64,000 bases of DNA from Candidatus Dormiibacterota bacterium (lineage in GTDB: Bacteria > Chloroflexota > Dormibacteria > Aeolococcales > Aeolococcaceae): positions 464,442 to 528,441 of the forward strand of contig CAVOMR010000002.1 in the NCBI GenBank assembly GCA_963697085.1. The letters are read 5' to 3'. The position numbers and the translations under genes are program-made. Below the pieces are notes generated by a model, which worked only from the letters and a program-made list of their open reading frames with translations, did not search any database and had not been told where the DNA came from. Numbering within the stretch: the first letter of the stretch is position 1; each line of letters starts with the position of its first letter. Below are positions 41,903-48,318 of this stretch, in pieces.

Positions 41903-43180
41903 ATGGAGCGAGACCAGATAGGTCGACATGAGCATATCGACACCGTCATAGCGCGTCAGGCGCGATGCAACACGGGCCTGCTTCCACATCGGCGCCATTT
42001 ACCGTTCCGGTGGCGACGGTCGCAGGTCACGTGGCCAGGCATCGCCACGCCACTGGTGGCAAGCCTCGTGCTGGCGGCCTGTGGCGCGAGCGCCACGTCA
42101 CCGGCCGCGGCGACCCCATCGGTCACGACCCCATCGGTCAACCCAACACCCTCAGCCGTTGCGCCCGCCGCAGAGCTGCAGCACCTCTGGATCGGCGCGC
42201 CACGCGTGGTCGCCCAGATCGGGACGGACCCGGTGCTCCCGGTGCTATCGATCGCCGGCAGCGCGATCTCGCTGAACATCGACCTCGGGCCGGTGGTCCT
42301 GGCATCGGACGCCGCAGCCAGCGGCCCGGGCACGCTGTCGCTCACGCTGCGCTCGCCCATGTACGGCTGCGCCACGGGCGCCGCAGGGACGTACGCGTGG
42401 TCCCTCGCGCCGGGCGGGGGCACCCTCACCTTGACCGCGAGCAACGATGCCTGCGCCGCGCGCGCGGCGGCCTTCGTCGGTACGTGGACCCGCTCGGATT
42501 GTCGCAACACCGCCGACGACTGCCTCGGGACGCTCCAGGCCGGGACACACGCGTCCACCTTCTTCGACGGACGCGACGCGTCGGCCGCCGTCCCCACCGA
42601 CGGGGCCTATGGCCAACTGCGATACACGGTGCCGGCCGGCTGGGCCAACAGCGAGGACTTCCCAATCGACTACGACCTCATGCCGGCGGCCGACTATGCC
42701 GGCGCGGCCGGCGTGACCGATGGCTCGGCCTACCACGGGATCTACATCTTCGCCCGGCCAGCGGCCCAAGCCGACAACGCGAGCTGTGCCAACCAGCTCG
42801 CGCCAGGCGTCGGCCAGACGCCGGCCGCCCTCGCCGCCTGGGTCGCCAACCGGCCCGGCGTTATCGCTACGAAGCCAACGGCCATCACGATCGGCGGCGA
42901 CCCGGGCTTCATGCTCGACCTCCACCTCGCGCCGAACCGCACGAAGCGGTGTCCCGGTGACAGCTTCCCCTCGCAAGGGCTCCTCGTCGACGCCGGTGGT
43001 GCGACCGACGGCTGGAACTGGGGCATCGGCGGCACCGAACAGCAGCGCCTCATCCTCTTGGCGATCGGCGGTGGCCACACCGTGGCCATCTTCGTCGACG
43101 ACAACTCCAGCCCGTCACGCTTTGGCGAACTCGTCGCCCAGGCGATGCCCATCATCACCACGTTCCAGTTCCCGCAATGA
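41903..43180 (+). CDS. Secreted lipoprotein, unknown function (Cys-containing extracytoplasmic domain)
   Basis: ...VTWPGIATPLVASLVLAACGASATSPAAATPSVTTPSVNPTPS (lipobox LAAC); real start probably the GTG near 42030; 425-aa track ORF. Confidence 0.6.
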   Translation: MERDQIGRHEHIDTVIARQARCNTGLLPHRRHLPFRWRRSQVTWPGIATPLVASLVLAACGASATSPAAATPSVTTPSVNPTPSAVAPAAELQHLWIGAPRVVAQIGTDPVLPVLSIAGSAISLNIDLGPVVLASDAAASGPGTLSLTLRSPMYGCATGAAGTYAWSLAPGGGTLTLTASNDACAARAAAFVGTWTRSDCRNTADDCLGTLQAGTHASTFFDGRDASAAVPTDGAYGQLRYTVPAGWANSEDFPIDYDLMPAADYAGAAGVTDGSAYHGIYIFARPAAQADNASCANQLAPGVGQTPAALAAWVANRPGVIATKPTAITIGGDPGFMLDLHLAPNRTKRCPGDSFPSQGLLVDAGGATDGWNWGIGGTEQQRLILLAIGGGHTVAIFVDDNSSPSRFGELVAQAMPIITTFQFPQ

Positions 43181-43323
43181 TCGACGGCCAGGGCGGCGGT
43201 GGACCGACGTTGGCCCCGCATCGGCGGCCGACGCCCAGGCCAGAGATCCGTCCGTCGATCCGCTCAGCCTTCCTTATTGCCGATGGGCGCAATGGCCGGA
43301 CGTGACGACGTGGGGAATATCCG

Positions 43324-43869
43324 GTGTGGGTCGGGATCATGATGCGGGCAGCAATGGCTGGCGAGCAGCGGGCGCTGAGAGACGAGGGAGACGCGAGTTT
43401 CGAAGCGTGTTTCACTGCCGAGGAGCACCGTCTTTTTGCGATCGCCATGTCGATCCTACGCGACCCGGCAGAGGCTCAGGACGCGACCCAGGAGACGGCA
43501 TTGATCGGATGGCGGCGGTGGAGTTCACTCCGGGATCCCGCGCGCTCAGGGGCGTGGCTGGCAAAGATCTGCGTGCACCACTGCGTGCGGCGCAAACGCT
43601 CGCTCGTCCGGTGGCTCAGTTTCGACCCATCCGTCCAGCAAGTTCGTGCGGAGGCAGATTTCCATATGCAGGATGGGGGGCGATTTGCCGATATGGACCG
43701 AGCCTACACACGGCTTTCGGCGCGCCAGCGCGCCGTCGTCAGCCTGCACTATCACCACGGCTACACGCTCGTCGAATGCGCGGATCTCATGGGGTGCAGC
43801 CCCGGATCCGTGTCGCAGCACCTCGCGAGAGCGCTCCGGTCGTTGCGAAGGGACCTCAGCGATGAATGA
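43324..43869 (+). CDS. ECF-type RNA polymerase sigma-70 factor
   Basis: Region 2: FEACFTAEEHRLFAIAMSILRDPAEAQDATQETALIGWRRW; region 4: LSARQRAVVSLHYHHGYTLVECADLMGCSPGSVSQHLARALRSLRRDL. Confidence 0.85.
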   Translation: MWVGIMMRAAMAGEQRALRDEGDASFEACFTAEEHRLFAIAMSILRDPAEAQDATQETALIGWRRWSSLRDPARSGAWLAKICVHHCVRRKRSLVRWLSFDPSVQQVRAEADFHMQDGGRFADMDRAYTRLSARQRAVVSLHYHHGYTLVECADLMGCSPGSVSQHLARALRSLRRDLSDE

Positions 43870-45002
43870 CAATCTTCAGAACTCGGCTCGACGCCTATCT
43901 CAACCGCTTCGAGACTTTTACGTCGCCACCGCTCGCCGTCAGGATCCCCGGGAGGCGCGCCAGACGACTGAACTTCCTGGCCGCCGCCGCTCTCGTTGCG
44001 GTCGTTGCCGTGGTTCTGGCCGCTCCAATCCTACTGTGGAGATTGGACGTCCGACACACGGCGCCAGCGGTGCCGCCGCTCCACCACAACGGGCAGATCG
44101 TGACGGGGCTCGGGAGCACCTTGGTCGCGTTGAACCTCGCCACCGGCGAGCAGCATGTGATCTTCTCCGACCCCGCGGGCGACGCAGTCCTCGATCCCGC
44201 GTACTCGCCGGATGGCACGAAGATCGCGTACCTCGAGGGTACCCTGCTCGACCACGGCATCGTGACAAACCCCACTTCGATTTGGGTCCTCGACACAACG
44301 ACCGGGCACACCCGGCTCCTCACGAGGTGTAGCGGGTGCGACATCTCCGACTACATCAGCTGGTCACCTGACGGTTCGCGTCTGGCCTTCTCTCAGGCTG
44401 ATCAGCGGGGAAGCCTGCAGCTCTATCTCATCGACGCCGACGGCAGCCACCTGACCCAGCTGACCCACTTCCCGGCTGCTCAGAACGCGGCGCAACCGAC
44501 GTGGTCCCCCGACGGCACGCGCCTTGCGTTCACTCTTTTCGGTATTGGAAACATCCCCAACCAGGGGGTGGTCTACACATCGGTCGACCTCGATGTCATC
44601 CGGGCCGATGGCACTGGGCTTGCCACGCTCCTCGCCAGTGGTCAGAACAGCAGCAACTTCACCATCTCCCAATACCTATTCCCGGCGTGGTCGCCAAACG
44701 GCTCTCGGATCGCGTACGTCCTCCTTGACCCGCCAGTGGCGGGCGGAGTCCCCCAGGCCCAGGTGTGGCTCATGAATCCCGACGGCTCGCATCGCACCGC
44801 GATCTTTTGGCAGAACGGCTGCTGCAGCGGCCTGGTGTGGTCACCCGATGGGACGCGGATGGTTGCCGCGACATTTGGTGGCGCTGGTTCTGGCGCGAAC
44901 CAGTCCGGGCTCTGGGTGATGAACGCCGACGGGTTTGCGGAAAAGGACACGAGCGAGATCAGCGACTACCTCGGCCGCCCGGCCTGGCAGCCAGTGCCGT
45001 GA
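43866..45002 (+). CDS. Membrane-anchored TolB-like beta-propeller (PD40 repeats) protein; candidate anti-sigma factor for the upstream ECF sigma
   Basis: ATGA overlap with the sigma gene; N-terminal cytoplasmic segment, TM (LNFLAAAALVAVVAVVLAAPILLW), then repeated ...SPDGTKIAYL..., ...WSPDGSRLAFS..., ...WSPDGTRLAFT..., ...WSPNGSRIAYV..., ...WSPDGTRMVA... Confidence 0.75.
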   Translation: MTIFRTRLDAYLNRFETFTSPPLAVRIPGRRARRLNFLAAAALVAVVAVVLAAPILLWRLDVRHTAPAVPPLHHNGQIVTGLGSTLVALNLATGEQHVIFSDPAGDAVLDPAYSPDGTKIAYLEGTLLDHGIVTNPTSIWVLDTTTGHTRLLTRCSGCDISDYISWSPDGSRLAFSQADQRGSLQLYLIDADGSHLTQLTHFPAAQNAAQPTWSPDGTRLAFTLFGIGNIPNQGVVYTSVDLDVIRADGTGLATLLASGQNSSNFTISQYLFPAWSPNGSRIAYVLLDPPVAGGVPQAQVWLMNPDGSHRTAIFWQNGCCSGLVWSPDGTRMVAATFGGAGSGANQSGLWVMNADGFAEKDTSEISDYLGRPAWQPVP

Positions 45003-45203: not shown

Positions 45204-46499
45204 ATGATGGAACGCCTGGGAACATCTGGCCCTCACACCCGGCGGAGGGCGATGCTGCGCCTCGCGGTTGTCGTCGTGATCGTTGGCGTTGCGTCATGGC
45301 TTGCCACTGGGCAGATCGGGCGCGCCGGGCAGCATTCAACGTCCGCGTCCTCGATCACCAGGTCTTCAGCGTCACCATCCTCGATCACCGGGTTCACAGC
45401 GTCACCATCCTCGATCACCGGGTCTTCAGCGTCACCATCCCTGACGTTGCCGGAGATCGGCCTTCTGTCCGGCGTGACCTGCGTGAGTGCACGAGATTGT
45501 TGGGCAGATGGTTCCAACGGATCATCAACACTGATGGTCCATTACGCCGGGAGTGGCTGGGCCTTCGTCACCGCTCCTTACCCGGCAGGGTCCACTGCTG
45601 CGTTGAACGGGGTGACCTGCGTGAGCGCTGACGATTGTTGGGCGGTTGGGAGTTCTGGCCCGGCGGGGCAGCCCGGTGATGCACCGCTGATCGAGCGCTA
45701 CACCGGGAGCAGCTGGACGATCGCCTCCGCCCCCGACCCTCGCCTCGGTCCGAACGTCGTGCTGAATGCAGTGGCCTGCATGAGCGCTGGGGAATGTTGG
45801 GCGGTTGGCGACTCCGGAAACGCCAGCGCCACCAGCCCACTGGTCGAGCGCTACACGGGGGGCCGCTGGGTGATCGTCGGCATCTCCAACCCGAGCCCGG
45901 ACCCGTTTGCTGTCTTGAATGGGGTGGCCTGCATGAGTAATGGGGAGTGTTGGGCGGTCGGCTACTCAGGCAATGTCAGCATCACCCGCCCATTGATCGA
46001 GCAGTACACGGGAAGCCGCTGGATCATCGTCGACGCGCGGAACCCCAGCGCAGCCCCCTTCGTCGCGCTGAATGCGATCGCCTGTGTTGGCCAACAGTGT
46101 TGGGCGGTTGGCTCGTCCGGCATCGGCGAGCCGGCGCTGCTCGAACACTTCACCGGAAGCACGTGGGTCATCGGCGCCCAATCCAGCGGGGGGGTCGCGA
46201 TCGGGGTGAGCTGTCCAAGCGTCGAGGACTGCTGGGCGGTTGGTCAGACCCAGCAACCAGCGATCGCCCAAGGTCCGCCGATGATCGAGCACTACAACGG
46301 GATCAGCTTGACAGCCGATCACACTCCAAACCAGATTGCGGGCGAAACCGGGGCCGTCTTAACTGGGGTGTCCTGCGTGAGTGTCTCGGACTGCTGGGCG
46401 GTGGGCTTTGGTGGGGGGGAGGGCAACCAGGGAACAATCATCGAGCAGTACACGGGGAGTGACTGGCGCGTGATTCGTGCTCTGAGCCACGGGCCGTGA
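45204..46499 (+). CDS. Signal-anchored secreted repeat protein with about 8 copies of a roughly 46-aa 'LNGVxCxSxxxCWAVG' repeat (novel; beta-propeller-like) after a Ser-rich linker
   Basis: LSGVTCVSARDCWADG / LNGVTCVSADDCWAVG / LNAVACMSAGECWAVG / LNGVACMSNGECWAVG / LNAIACVGQQCWAVG / GVSCPSVEDCWAVG / LTGVSCVSVSDCWAVG, each followed by ...ERYTGS(S/R)W(T/V)I...; N-terminal TM MLRLAVVVVIVGVASWLATG. Confidence 0.7.
   Translation: MMERLGTSGPHTRRRAMLRLAVVVVIVGVASWLATGQIGRAGQHSTSASSITRSSASPSSITGFTASPSSITGSSASPSLTLPEIGLLSGVTCVSARDCWADGSNGSSTLMVHYAGSGWAFVTAPYPAGSTAALNGVTCVSADDCWAVGSSGPAGQPGDAPLIERYTGSSWTIASAPDPRLGPNVVLNAVACMSAGECWAVGDSGNASATSPLVERYTGGRWVIVGISNPSPDPFAVLNGVACMSNGECWAVGYSGNVSITRPLIEQYTGSRWIIVDARNPSAAPFVALNAIACVGQQCWAVGSSGIGEPALLEHFTGSTWVIGAQSSGGVAIGVSCPSVEDCWAVGQTQQPAIAQGPPMIEHYNGISLTADHTPNQIAGETGAVLTGVSCVSVSDCWAVGFGGGEGNQGTIIEQYTGSDWRVIRALSHGP
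45344..45442 (+). repeat. Coding tandem repeat, about 3 x 33 nt (tcaccatcctcgatcaccgggtcttcagcg) encoding Ser-rich linker SASPSSITG-
   Basis: Protein: SASSITRSSASPSSITGFTASPSSITGSSASPS; nucleotide repeats read directly at 45344-45442. Confidence 0.8.
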
Positions 46500-47726: not shown

Positions 47727-48318
47727 TCACTTGACGACACCCGCGCCTGCCGCGTTGACGACTTCCCAGCGAGCTCCGAAGGCGTCGATCCCCTCGCCGT
47801 TCGCCACGCCCGGCGCCGAATCGGCGATGAAGTAATAGAGCGGATGACCGTCATAGGTAACTTGGGTCGTCCCGTTCTGGCGCTTGGTCGTGCCGAGCTG
47901 ACTCTGCAAGACGCCGCTCGTCGCTCGTGGGGCACCAATCGTGGTCAAAGGGGGCCAGTTCTGCGCGCACGCCCCTTACAGGTGGACGTCGTGCCTGCGT
48001 CACCCAGGAAGAGATATAGGGTTCTGCCGTTGCCTCCGACGAGGATCTGCCCCAGGTCACCGACGCTGCGCAAGGCCATTGCCGTGCCCGTCGCCGGAGC
48101 GGACGGTGCGGGCGTCGACGTCGGCTTGGCCGTGGCGTCGGCGTGGTTACAGTTGTCGGCGTCGGTGGCGGCGTTGTGGAAGATGGGGCAGTCGGGGTTG
48201 GAGATGTTCCGCCGATTGTGCCGGTGGTTGCAGACCCGCAGGCGGCGAGGATAAGCAGACTAAAGGTACCGCCCAACATCACGAGGTTCCGTGTCATCTG
48301 TCCGTGCTCCGCGGTCAT
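47727..48318 (-). CDS. COG4315-family secreted lipoprotein (Yx(F/Y)xxD motif family); frameshifted around 47990
   Basis: N-terminus MTRNLVMLGGTFSLLILAACGSATTGT... (lipobox) in ORF 47851..48318; C-terminus GTTQVTYDGHPLYYFIADSAPGVANGEGIDAFGARWEVVNAAG in ORF 47727..47948; the middle (LVGGNGRTLYLFLGDAGTTSTC...) is readable only by shifting frame at a GGGG run. Confidence 0.7.

Follow-up and report, generated by a model that had tools for sequence, protein, structure and literature searches.

What kind of protein is encoded by the repetitive open reading frame (ORF) at positions 45204-46499 of a 64,000-nucleotide stretch of Candidatus Dormiibacterota DNA (contig CAVOMR010000002.1; the whole 64-kb stretch is called the window below)? 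An earlier note, made from the sequence alone, had described a repeat protein of no recognized family, displayed outside the cell and folded as either a β-propeller or a β-helix. We found that this gene encodes a 431-aa membrane-anchored protein predicted to form a seven-bladed β-propeller, in which each blade probably carries one disulfide, and that it belongs to what sequence searches reveal as a very large, uncurated family without a described name.

Repeats were delimited with a regular expression and by alignment of the translation. The protein contains exactly seven in tandem, so that the tandem arrangement proposed earlier ("seven to eight" repeats) stands, while an eighth copy does not. 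The repeats are 43-54 aa long (mean ~49) and 23-69% identical to one another in pairwise comparisons. They follow the pattern L-x-G-V-x-C-x-S-x-x-x-C-W-A-V-G and then [PL]-L-I-E-x-[YF]-x-G-x-x-W, with the [YF]-x-G-x-x-W element coming 15-25 residues after C-x4/5-C-W-A-[VD]-G. All of the protein's Cys (14/14) are located in the repeat motif. The two conserved Cys followed by WAVG, and later by YTGSxW, that had been noted earlier were borne out, with three deviations: the spacing is C-x5-C-W in six blades and C-x4-C-W in blade 5 (CVGQQCW), blade 1 has WADG instead of WAVG, and blade 6 reads YNGISL, where the second Trp is missing. We trained a single-blade hidden Markov model (HMM) on 4,100 blades, drawn from 365 family proteins. 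In the ORF it detects seven domains, each with an independent E ≤ 5.6e-10, and it detects no further blade in the six-frame translation of the window. The gene and its parts are as follows.

45204-46499 (+), whole gene for the 431-aa membrane-anchored Cys-repeat protein, a predicted seven-bladed propeller (ORF list; stop codon 46497-46499)
45204-45308 (+), Arg-rich, predicted cytoplasmic tail (residues 1-16, HTRRRA) and hydrophobic signal anchor or transmembrane helix (~residues 17-35), from the sequence and the AlphaFold helices
45309-45458 (+), disordered Ser/Thr/Pro-rich linker (residues 36-85), from composition and a predicted local distance difference test (pLDDT) <50 over residues 26-79
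45348-45440 (+), DNA tandem repeat in the linker, period 30 nt, 3.1 copies, 88% matches, score 158 (Tandem Repeats Finder)
45459-45596 (+), blade 1 (residues 86-131), CVSARDCWADG ... HYAGSGW, from the motif, predicted strands 87-95, 98-104, 109-114, and 119-122, and the blade HMM
45597-45755 (+), blade 2 (residues 132-184), CVSADDCWAVG ... RYTGSSW, from the motif, AlphaFold2, and the blade HMM, as for all blades below
45756-45908 (+), blade 3 (residues 185-235), CMSAGECWAVG ... RYTGGRW
45909-46061 (+), blade 4 (residues 236-286), CMSNGECWAVG ... QYTGSRW
46062-46190 (+), blade 5 (residues 287-329), CVGQQCWAVG (C-x4-C) ... HFTGSTW
46191-46352 (+), blade 6 (residues 330-383), CPSVEDCWAVG ... HYNGISL, second Trp missing
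46353-46496 (+), blade 7 (residues 384-431), CVSVSDCWAVG ... QYTGSDW

Blades 3 and 4 form the most similar pair (69% protein identity) and coincide with a 153-nt DNA tandem repeat (73% matches, 45755-46084). Their likeness points to a relatively recent internal duplication or gene conversion between blades.

The fold was predicted with AlphaFold2. The single sequence already gives seven groups of four strands, with a pLDDT of 67 and a predicted template modeling score (pTM) of 0.69. When 42 homologs are added, the model has 28 strands in seven groups of four and a pTM of 0.78; over residues 86-425, 10-residue block means of pLDDT are mostly 80-97, with loop blocks down to 63-68. In a Foldseek search of the PDB, the top 50 matches are all propellers. 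The best is the seven-bladed Ycf48 (E 6e-10, template modeling score 0.70 on the target, 13% identity over ~355 aligned columns), and others include the C-terminal propeller of CylK, Kelch domains, GH74, sialidase, and PL25 propellers, and propeller lectins. The number of blades per family protein peaks at 7 (138 proteins), 14 (144), and 21 (9). Together, modeling and blade counts support a seven-bladed β-propeller. An AlphaFold prediction had been suggested earlier as the check on a propeller, and the model obtained has the 7-bladed layout.

The alternative originally offered, a β-helix or another solenoid instead of a closed propeller, deserves consideration because solenoids can arise from 45-50-aa tandem repeats in which Gly, Ser, and Val abound. 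We give it next to no credence and reject it: each repeat is modeled with high confidence as four antiparallel strands, the structural neighbors are exclusively propellers, and repeat numbers are quantized at 7, 14, 21, and 28, as expected of closed seven-bladed rings and not of open solenoids. Helical repeats of the Sel1 or TPR type were rejected as well, since the model is all-β in residues 86-425 and Pfam gives no Sel1 match. The propeller fold itself is ordinary, and this sequence family is a new variant of a well-known fold; its importance lies in the scale of the family and its missing annotation, not in the fold.

The feature that sets the family apart is the pair of Cys in each blade, which in the model, as analyzed with DSSP, flanks the hairpin between strands 1 and 2. 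Both columns are occupied in 4,047 blades; the Cys pair is complete in 3,719 of them and absent from 325, and only 3 have a single Cys. Independent variation of the two positions would give an expected ~26 Cys-less blades. These are counts from related sequences and not a formal probability. Blades without Cys mostly have Ala/Val, Ala/Ile, or Val/Val at the paired columns, and Cys outside the pair is rare (58 in 4,100 blades). In addition, conservation among 42 homologs is 90% or higher in each of the 14 Cys columns. Because the two Cys are kept or lost together, one structural disulfide per blade is strongly supported, in line with the disulfide stabilization that had been inferred earlier. 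This near-perfect joint gain and loss amounts to a natural experiment on the disulfide stapling of blades, which could help propeller design.

Searches for a named family to which this blade might belong returned little. In Pfam, no BNR, BNR_2, PSII_BNR, Sortilin-Vps10, YVTN, tachylectin, Sel1, Kelch, WD40, PD40, or NHL match is seen at E ≤ 10, and the likeness to BNR-type propellers is structural only. The lone Pfam match is to Rax2 (PF12768); it covers model positions 110-160 and scores 18.8 bits (E 0.0011), where the cut-off is 28.8. NCBIfam holds nothing relevant for the propeller protein, and PDB sequences yield nothing at E ≤ 10 with either the single protein (phmmer) or a 42-sequence profile built from the window protein and 41 relatives. 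Full-text literature searches returned nothing describing the CWAVG repeat, DUF6087, or DUF2510, and nothing on this repeat under Dormibacterota with propeller or anti-sigma with β-propeller. With no significant match in these three sequence collections, and none to the families by which the earlier note could have been contradicted, its statement that the repeat has no family name is upheld. Its word "novel" holds for the absence of a curated name but not beyond, as such proteins are already abundant in databases as "hypothetical protein".

Three curated families come close enough to need comment. The Rax2 C-terminal propeller is the only one with sequence signal for single-propeller members: among 42 single-propeller relatives, 7/42 match it at E ≤ 1e-3 (best 8.6e-9), and 1/42 matches DUF6087. 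Rax2 is a membrane-anchored eukaryotic surface protein. The match in the window protein extends over ~50 of 254 model positions, roughly one blade, and the signal indicates a common propeller-blade pattern, not family membership. Long relatives with at least 14 blades exceed the whole-sequence cut-offs of DUF6087 (PF19565) and DUF2510 (PF10708), as exemplified by P0005 with 83.5 and 65.8 bits, respectively, but these scores are sums of partial matches in which no individual stretch is significant. The overlap with DUF6087 is the C-x5-C-W-A-V-G stretch (model positions ~44-78, a third of the model), and that with DUF2510 is the W-D-G-x-x-W-T turn (model positions ~14-33). The window protein matches neither, neither model describes a propeller blade, and both are families of unknown function.

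Structurally, the closest known system is Ycf48/HCF136 (Pfam PSII_BNR; PDB 5OJR and 5OJ5), which likewise has seven four-stranded blades. The G-x-x-W turn between strands 3 and 4 of our family stands at the place of the Asp-box in BNR-type blades. The blade consensus at this position is E76-x-[W73/Y14]-[N42/D33]-G95-[T/S]-x-W98 (numbers are column frequencies over 4,100 blades), and the window protein has [RQH]-[YF]-[TNA]-G-x-x-W. This is not the canonical Asp-box S-x-D-x-G-x-T-W, since Ser and Asp are absent and only the G..W spacing is shared. Unlike Ycf48, with which it shares 13% identity and no PDB or PSII_BNR/BNR sequence match, the window family is defined by its per-blade Cys pair. Ycf48 is a photosystem II assembly factor serving as a noncatalytic binding platform, with a PDB entry that shows a bound D1 peptide, and we take both proteins to be membrane-tethered on the noncytoplasmic side. 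The family's host lineages are not known to be phototrophs. Kelch domains (KLHDC2, LZTR1, and KLHL2/3) and the CylK C-terminal propeller similarly have four-stranded blades, ~45-50 residues in length, in which a Trp is conserved and a turn is rich in Gly. Their Foldseek E values range from 1e-9 to 1e-6, with identity at or below 20% and no Pfam Kelch match. Kelch domains are usually six-bladed, and the ones matched are cytosolic eukaryotic substrate adaptors.

The structural matches raise the possibility that the protein is an enzyme on a propeller scaffold (a glycoside hydrolase, a lyase, or an alkylating enzyme, similar to sialidase, GH74, PL25, or CylK), with an active site in the central channel. 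Catalytic propellers are indeed among the matches (CylK with E ~1e-9, GH74, PL25, GH33/GH181 sialidases, and prolyl oligopeptidase), and one Glu per blade, in L-I-E-x-[WY], is 76% conserved over the 4,100 blades. However, the conserved propeller residues (C, W, G, L, A, V, and this one E per blade) look structural and none look catalytic. Conservation is repeated from blade to blade at every such position, a structural and not a catalytic signature, and the 42-sequence alignment shows no conspicuous polar residue that is invariant in a particular blade. Moreover, Pfam, NCBIfam, and the PDB contain no enzyme-family sequence match, and many architectures employ the module as an accessory domain. 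Because the conserved positions recur in each blade and look structural, we consider an enzymatic role improbable.

The size of the family became apparent from an exhaustive search with the 42-sequence profile. Among 1.84 billion cluster representatives (clusters at 50% identity), 51,479 match at E ≤ 1e-3, 36,901 at E ≤ 1e-10, and 18,500 at E ≤ 1e-30. Many of these proteins are 700-3,700 aa long and have several propeller-length stretches. A word-indexed search gave 1,597 matches among 8,000 scored candidates, and a scan of the genome collection with the single protein as a query found nothing. Source names of family proteins are "hypothetical protein", except for names that come from fused domains. 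Curation would label tens of thousands of "hypothetical proteins" in little-understood soil and peat groups (Dormibacterota, Acidimicrobiia, and Chthoniobacterales).

Contigs from one genome per species were also scanned, with a pattern-limited search based on a 5-sequence alignment, which confirmed 210 loci. Taxonomy is given for the best 79 of these 210: 30 loci are from Dormibacterota, 19 from Verrucomicrobiota (mostly Chthoniobacterales), 16 from Acidimicrobiia, 6 from other Actinomycetota, 5 from Chloroflexota, 2 from a single Thermoplasmatota genome, and 1 is unclassified. All of these best 79 loci are in metagenome-assembled genomes (MAGs), whose isolate names indicate soil, peat, and mire surveys (MFD, SPRUCE, and palsa/bog/fen). 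Several MAGs have multiple family loci, and tandem paralogs occur. The closest relative among the loci is in a Candidatus Dormibacteraeota MAG, with 60% identity and a sigma factor that is 85% identical, which makes this phylum the probable source of the window. The two archaeal-binned loci, L011 and L015 in Thermoplasmatota archaeon MAG SO_2017_GW3_17, encode 9-13 detected blades together with He_PIG/cadherin/PKD domains, and could reflect horizontal transfer or mis-binning.

How the propeller is held at the cell depends on where the gene starts. The public record of the identical sequence, P0001, is a 321-aa protein starting at Met111 (window 45534; N terminus MVHYAGSGW), which lacks the anchor and linker as well as half of blade 1; an exact look-up of this 321-aa form returned no contig. 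Were this call correct, the product would stay in the cytoplasm and have six and a half repeats, with nothing upstream of Met111 translated. The deposited record itself speaks for this model, as does a lower G+C content at third codon positions in codons 1-110 (0.66) than in the remainder (0.78). On the other side, the Arg-rich tail, the transmembrane segment, and blade 1 are conserved in P0002 (407 aa), P0010, and P0024, and a start at Met111 would sever blade 1 past its second strand, leaving a propeller unable to close. Export is also indicated by the paired Cys and by the extracellular fusion partners of the family described below. Finally, other public calls are equally shortened while longer versions exist in the same cluster, as for the orthologs P0007 (266 aa) and P0122 (403 aa). 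This second short/long pair suggests that the start-codon error is systematic for the propeller family in annotations of high-GC MAGs. We therefore reject the short gene model, which we hold to be very improbable. Since the Arg-rich tail, the transmembrane segment, and blade 1 are conserved at the protein level in orthologs, which are 46-69% identical and cover the full length including the N terminus, the comparative evidence favors the long form, with translation starting at one of the first two codons, or no later than codon 17.

In this long form, the N-terminal helix spans residues 12-35 in the single-sequence model and 14-34 in the model with alignment, a hydrophobic stretch of ~19-21 residues. 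The anchor and the preceding Arg residues are kept in orthologs P0002 and P0010. The N terminus contains no Cys and therefore no lipobox, so the protein is not a lipoprotein. A Tat signal was also rejected, as TRRRAML only loosely resembles S/T-R-R-x-F-L-K and disulfide-requiring export favors Sec. The Ser-rich linker is encoded by a DNA tandem repeat, as noticed earlier, although its period is 30 nt and not the 33 nt first reported. This repeat encodes the 10-aa unit SSITGSSASP, two units of which make up a 20-aa insertion that is not present in orthologs P0002, P0003, P0004, and P0010.

An extracytoplasmic location is also suggested by the rest of the family. An N-terminal hydrophobic segment occurs in nearly every family ORF (83 loci), and the fusion partners identified by Pfam are all extracellular modules: dockerin, Big/He_PIG/cadherin/PKD, InlB B-repeat, and an RHS-repeat toxin core. 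The display outside the cell through an N-terminal anchor that the earlier note had proposed thus fits not only the window protein but also its relatives, with the topology presumed from these features.

Several family ORFs have additional modules. A 2,009-aa stop-to-stop ORF in a Dormibacterota MAG (L012:5454-11481) has an N-terminal Cys-repeat propeller followed by an RHS core (RHS_repeat, 167 bits), which suggests that the propeller can serve as a targeting or secretion-associated domain of polymorphic toxins. In Acidimicrobiaceae, the C-terminal ~280 aa of L013:5691-7973 consist of 6 copies of a ~45-aa GYWLVASDGGIFNYGDAxFxGS repeat with no Pfam match. Similarly without a Pfam match are three ~165-aa units, each starting with RICDTR, in the C-terminal ~500 aa of L004:5781-8366 (Chloroflexia/Dormibacteria MAGs). 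In relatives P0041 and P0108, a single chain holds regions 2 and 4 of an ECF (extracytoplasmic function) sigma factor and the anti-sigma motif zf-HC2, together with a Pro-rich spacer, a transmembrane segment, and a Cys-repeat propeller. Because P0108 is present on 8 contigs, its fusion is unlikely to be an assembly artifact.

Sigma factors also appear next to the propeller gene in the window, where it is the last of three codirectional genes, separated from the second by 201 bp. The two genes that precede it are the following.

43324-43869 (+), ECF-type sigma factor gene, first in the conserved cluster (Pfam Sigma70_r2, Sigma70_r4, and Sigma70_ECF; NCBIfam sigma70-ECF, 69.3 bits against a cut-off of 42.9)
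43866-45002 (+), protein in the anti-sigma position that crosses the membrane once and has a PD40/TolB-like propeller as its ectodomain (Pfam PD40, 84 bits; its start overlaps the sigma stop codon)

Similarity of the PD40 protein to the NCBIfam TolB propeller is below the cut-off. The ECF sigma factor is 85% identical in the orthologous locus L001, and the sigma-PD40-propeller order is kept in two orthologous loci (L080 and L081), whose propellers are 61% and 46% identical to ours. Extra PD40 paralogs are sometimes found between the sigma-PD40 pair and the propeller gene in orthologous loci. At 7 of 79 other loci, a homologous ECF sigma gene is directly followed, with overlap, by the gene of a family member. 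Such family proteins in the anti-sigma position (L062/L068/L076-type) have a ~50-aa cytoplasmic N terminus and a transmembrane segment. Known membrane anti-sigma factors with extracytoplasmic sensors resemble the PD40 neighbor, being single-pass with the propeller outside; the window protein differs from them in having no cytoplasmic anti-sigma domain, whereas P0041, P0108, and the L062/L068/L076-type relatives have such regions. In the window, the anti-sigma slot is held by the PD40 protein (43866-45002) and so not by the propeller gene. Kinship between the two neighboring propellers was rejected, as hhalign gives a probability of 0.3% with the family profile.

A conserved DNA element, GTGACGA(C/G) ... 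AA(C/T)AT-N14-GGATC, lies directly upstream of the ECF sigma gene in 3/3 orthologous loci (window 43270-43340, L080:3300-3349, and L081:4230-4278) and could be an autoregulated promoter. Because this element overlaps the listed GTG start, the true sigma start is probably the ATG at ~43339, a few codons downstream.

We propose that the window protein is a membrane-anchored extracytoplasmic binding or sensor propeller that works with the sigma-PD40 signaling module, a reading that we consider reasonably probable. It would be a Sec-inserted type-II protein (N-in, C-out), held in the cytoplasmic membrane by the Arg-rich tail and one transmembrane helix, with a flexible Ser/Pro-rich stalk of ~50 residues projecting the seven-bladed propeller into the cell envelope. 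Each repeat would form one four-stranded blade, in which the Cys flank the hairpin between strand 1 (LNGVxC) and strand 2 (CWAVG) and form one disulfide, while the [WY]-x-G-x-x-W turn joins the third and fourth strands. The propeller would then most likely offer an envelope or extracellular ligand a rigid binding platform, hardened by oxidation. The protein is presumably coexpressed with the ECF sigma/PD40 module and would work with it, either beside the PD40 protein, as its cosensor or partner, or as an effector within the sigma regulon.

Several observations weigh against this proposal. No ligand is indicated by any result of the analysis, and the DSSP register of the model puts the two Cys of a blade diagonally, not directly opposite, across the hairpin. 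The window protein was rejected as an anti-sigma factor itself, since it has ~16 cytoplasmic residues and no Pfam anti-sigma domain. The N termini of PD40-type and propeller-type proteins found in the anti-sigma position share a weak AYLxR..PP motif (hhalign P = 0.007 over 14 columns), which is suggestive only of a common N terminus. Cotranscription across the 201-bp gap would follow solely from the fact that no terminator is predicted between the PD40 and propeller genes, where no sigma-70 promoter is predicted either. No ECF-type promoter common to the sigma gene and the propeller gene was identified; the sequences resembling GGAAC upstream of propeller genes match only loosely and vary in spacing, and this candidate was rejected. 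In addition, five other single-propeller relatives, P0024 among them, have unrelated neighborhoods with no recurring partner genes. Because P0024 and the other four are without sigma context, the sigma link is recurrent but lineage-specific, not family-wide.

These points leave room for the main rival explanation, in which the propeller is a lectin- or adhesin-like module that binds polysaccharide (plant, fungal, or microbial wall polymers, or the cell's own envelope glycans) and the adjacency of the sigma factor is incidental. Consistent with this, the dockerin, Ig-like/PKD/cadherin, and RHS modules found in the family are typical of secreted adhesins, cellulosome-like assemblies, and contact-dependent toxins, and the Foldseek lists include propeller lectins (PLL3, AAL, and RSL) in addition to GH74, PL25, and sialidase propellers. 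Furthermore, most relatives examined have no nearby sigma factor, and the family has expanded among organisms of soil and peat, whose MAGs carry several paralogs each. However, the lectin matches rank under Ycf48, CylK, and Kelch and have at most 10% identity, and no sugar-binding motif was identified in the protein. The sigma-PD40-propeller order is conserved down to 46% identity, and independent lineages place the propeller on anti-sigma-position proteins or fuse it to sigma/anti-sigma domains. On balance, we find this explanation doubtful, and we retain the binding or sensor propeller of the sigma-PD40 module as the preferred reading.

Looking beyond the window, it is possible, although we put this forward tentatively and would not bet on it, that the C-x5-C-W-A-V-G / W-x-G-x-x-W blade defines an undescribed superfamily (at least 50,000 clusters at 50% identity) that serves as an interchangeable extracytoplasmic recognition module of soil Terrabacteria and Verrucomicrobiota. 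Its roles would include the sensor ectodomain of ECF anti-sigma factors, where it would swap with PD40 on a possibly shared short N terminus, the targeting of RHS toxins, and surface binding in dockerin and Ig architectures, with the disulfides as an adaptation to life outside the cell. The recurrent placement of the module with ECF sigma/anti-sigma proteins and RHS toxins offers testable starting points for asking what such uncultured organisms detect or bind.

Finally, other features of the window deserve mention. Directly upstream of the sigma gene, 41903-43180 (+) encodes a 425-aa predicted lipoprotein with a lipobox-like LVLAACGAS, an Ala/Pro/Thr linker, and several Cys; it has no Pfam or NCBIfam match and no tblastn match in the family loci, including the orthologous L001. 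The 64-kb window as a whole contains no tRNA gene and no Rfam family at the gathering threshold. On the other side of the propeller gene, a lipoprotein gene at 47727-48318 (-) is apparently frameshifted. A 155-aa ORF has the signal peptide, a lipobox (LILAAC), and a Pro/Thr linker, and the other frame has a Pfam Lipoprotein_15 repeat (73-aa ORF, 60 bits). From the DNA, one base restored in a G/C run near 47970 would seem to yield the usual C-x-G-x-C-A-x-x-W-P-P motif; this gene is either a pseudogene or the product of a homopolymer error of long-read assembly.

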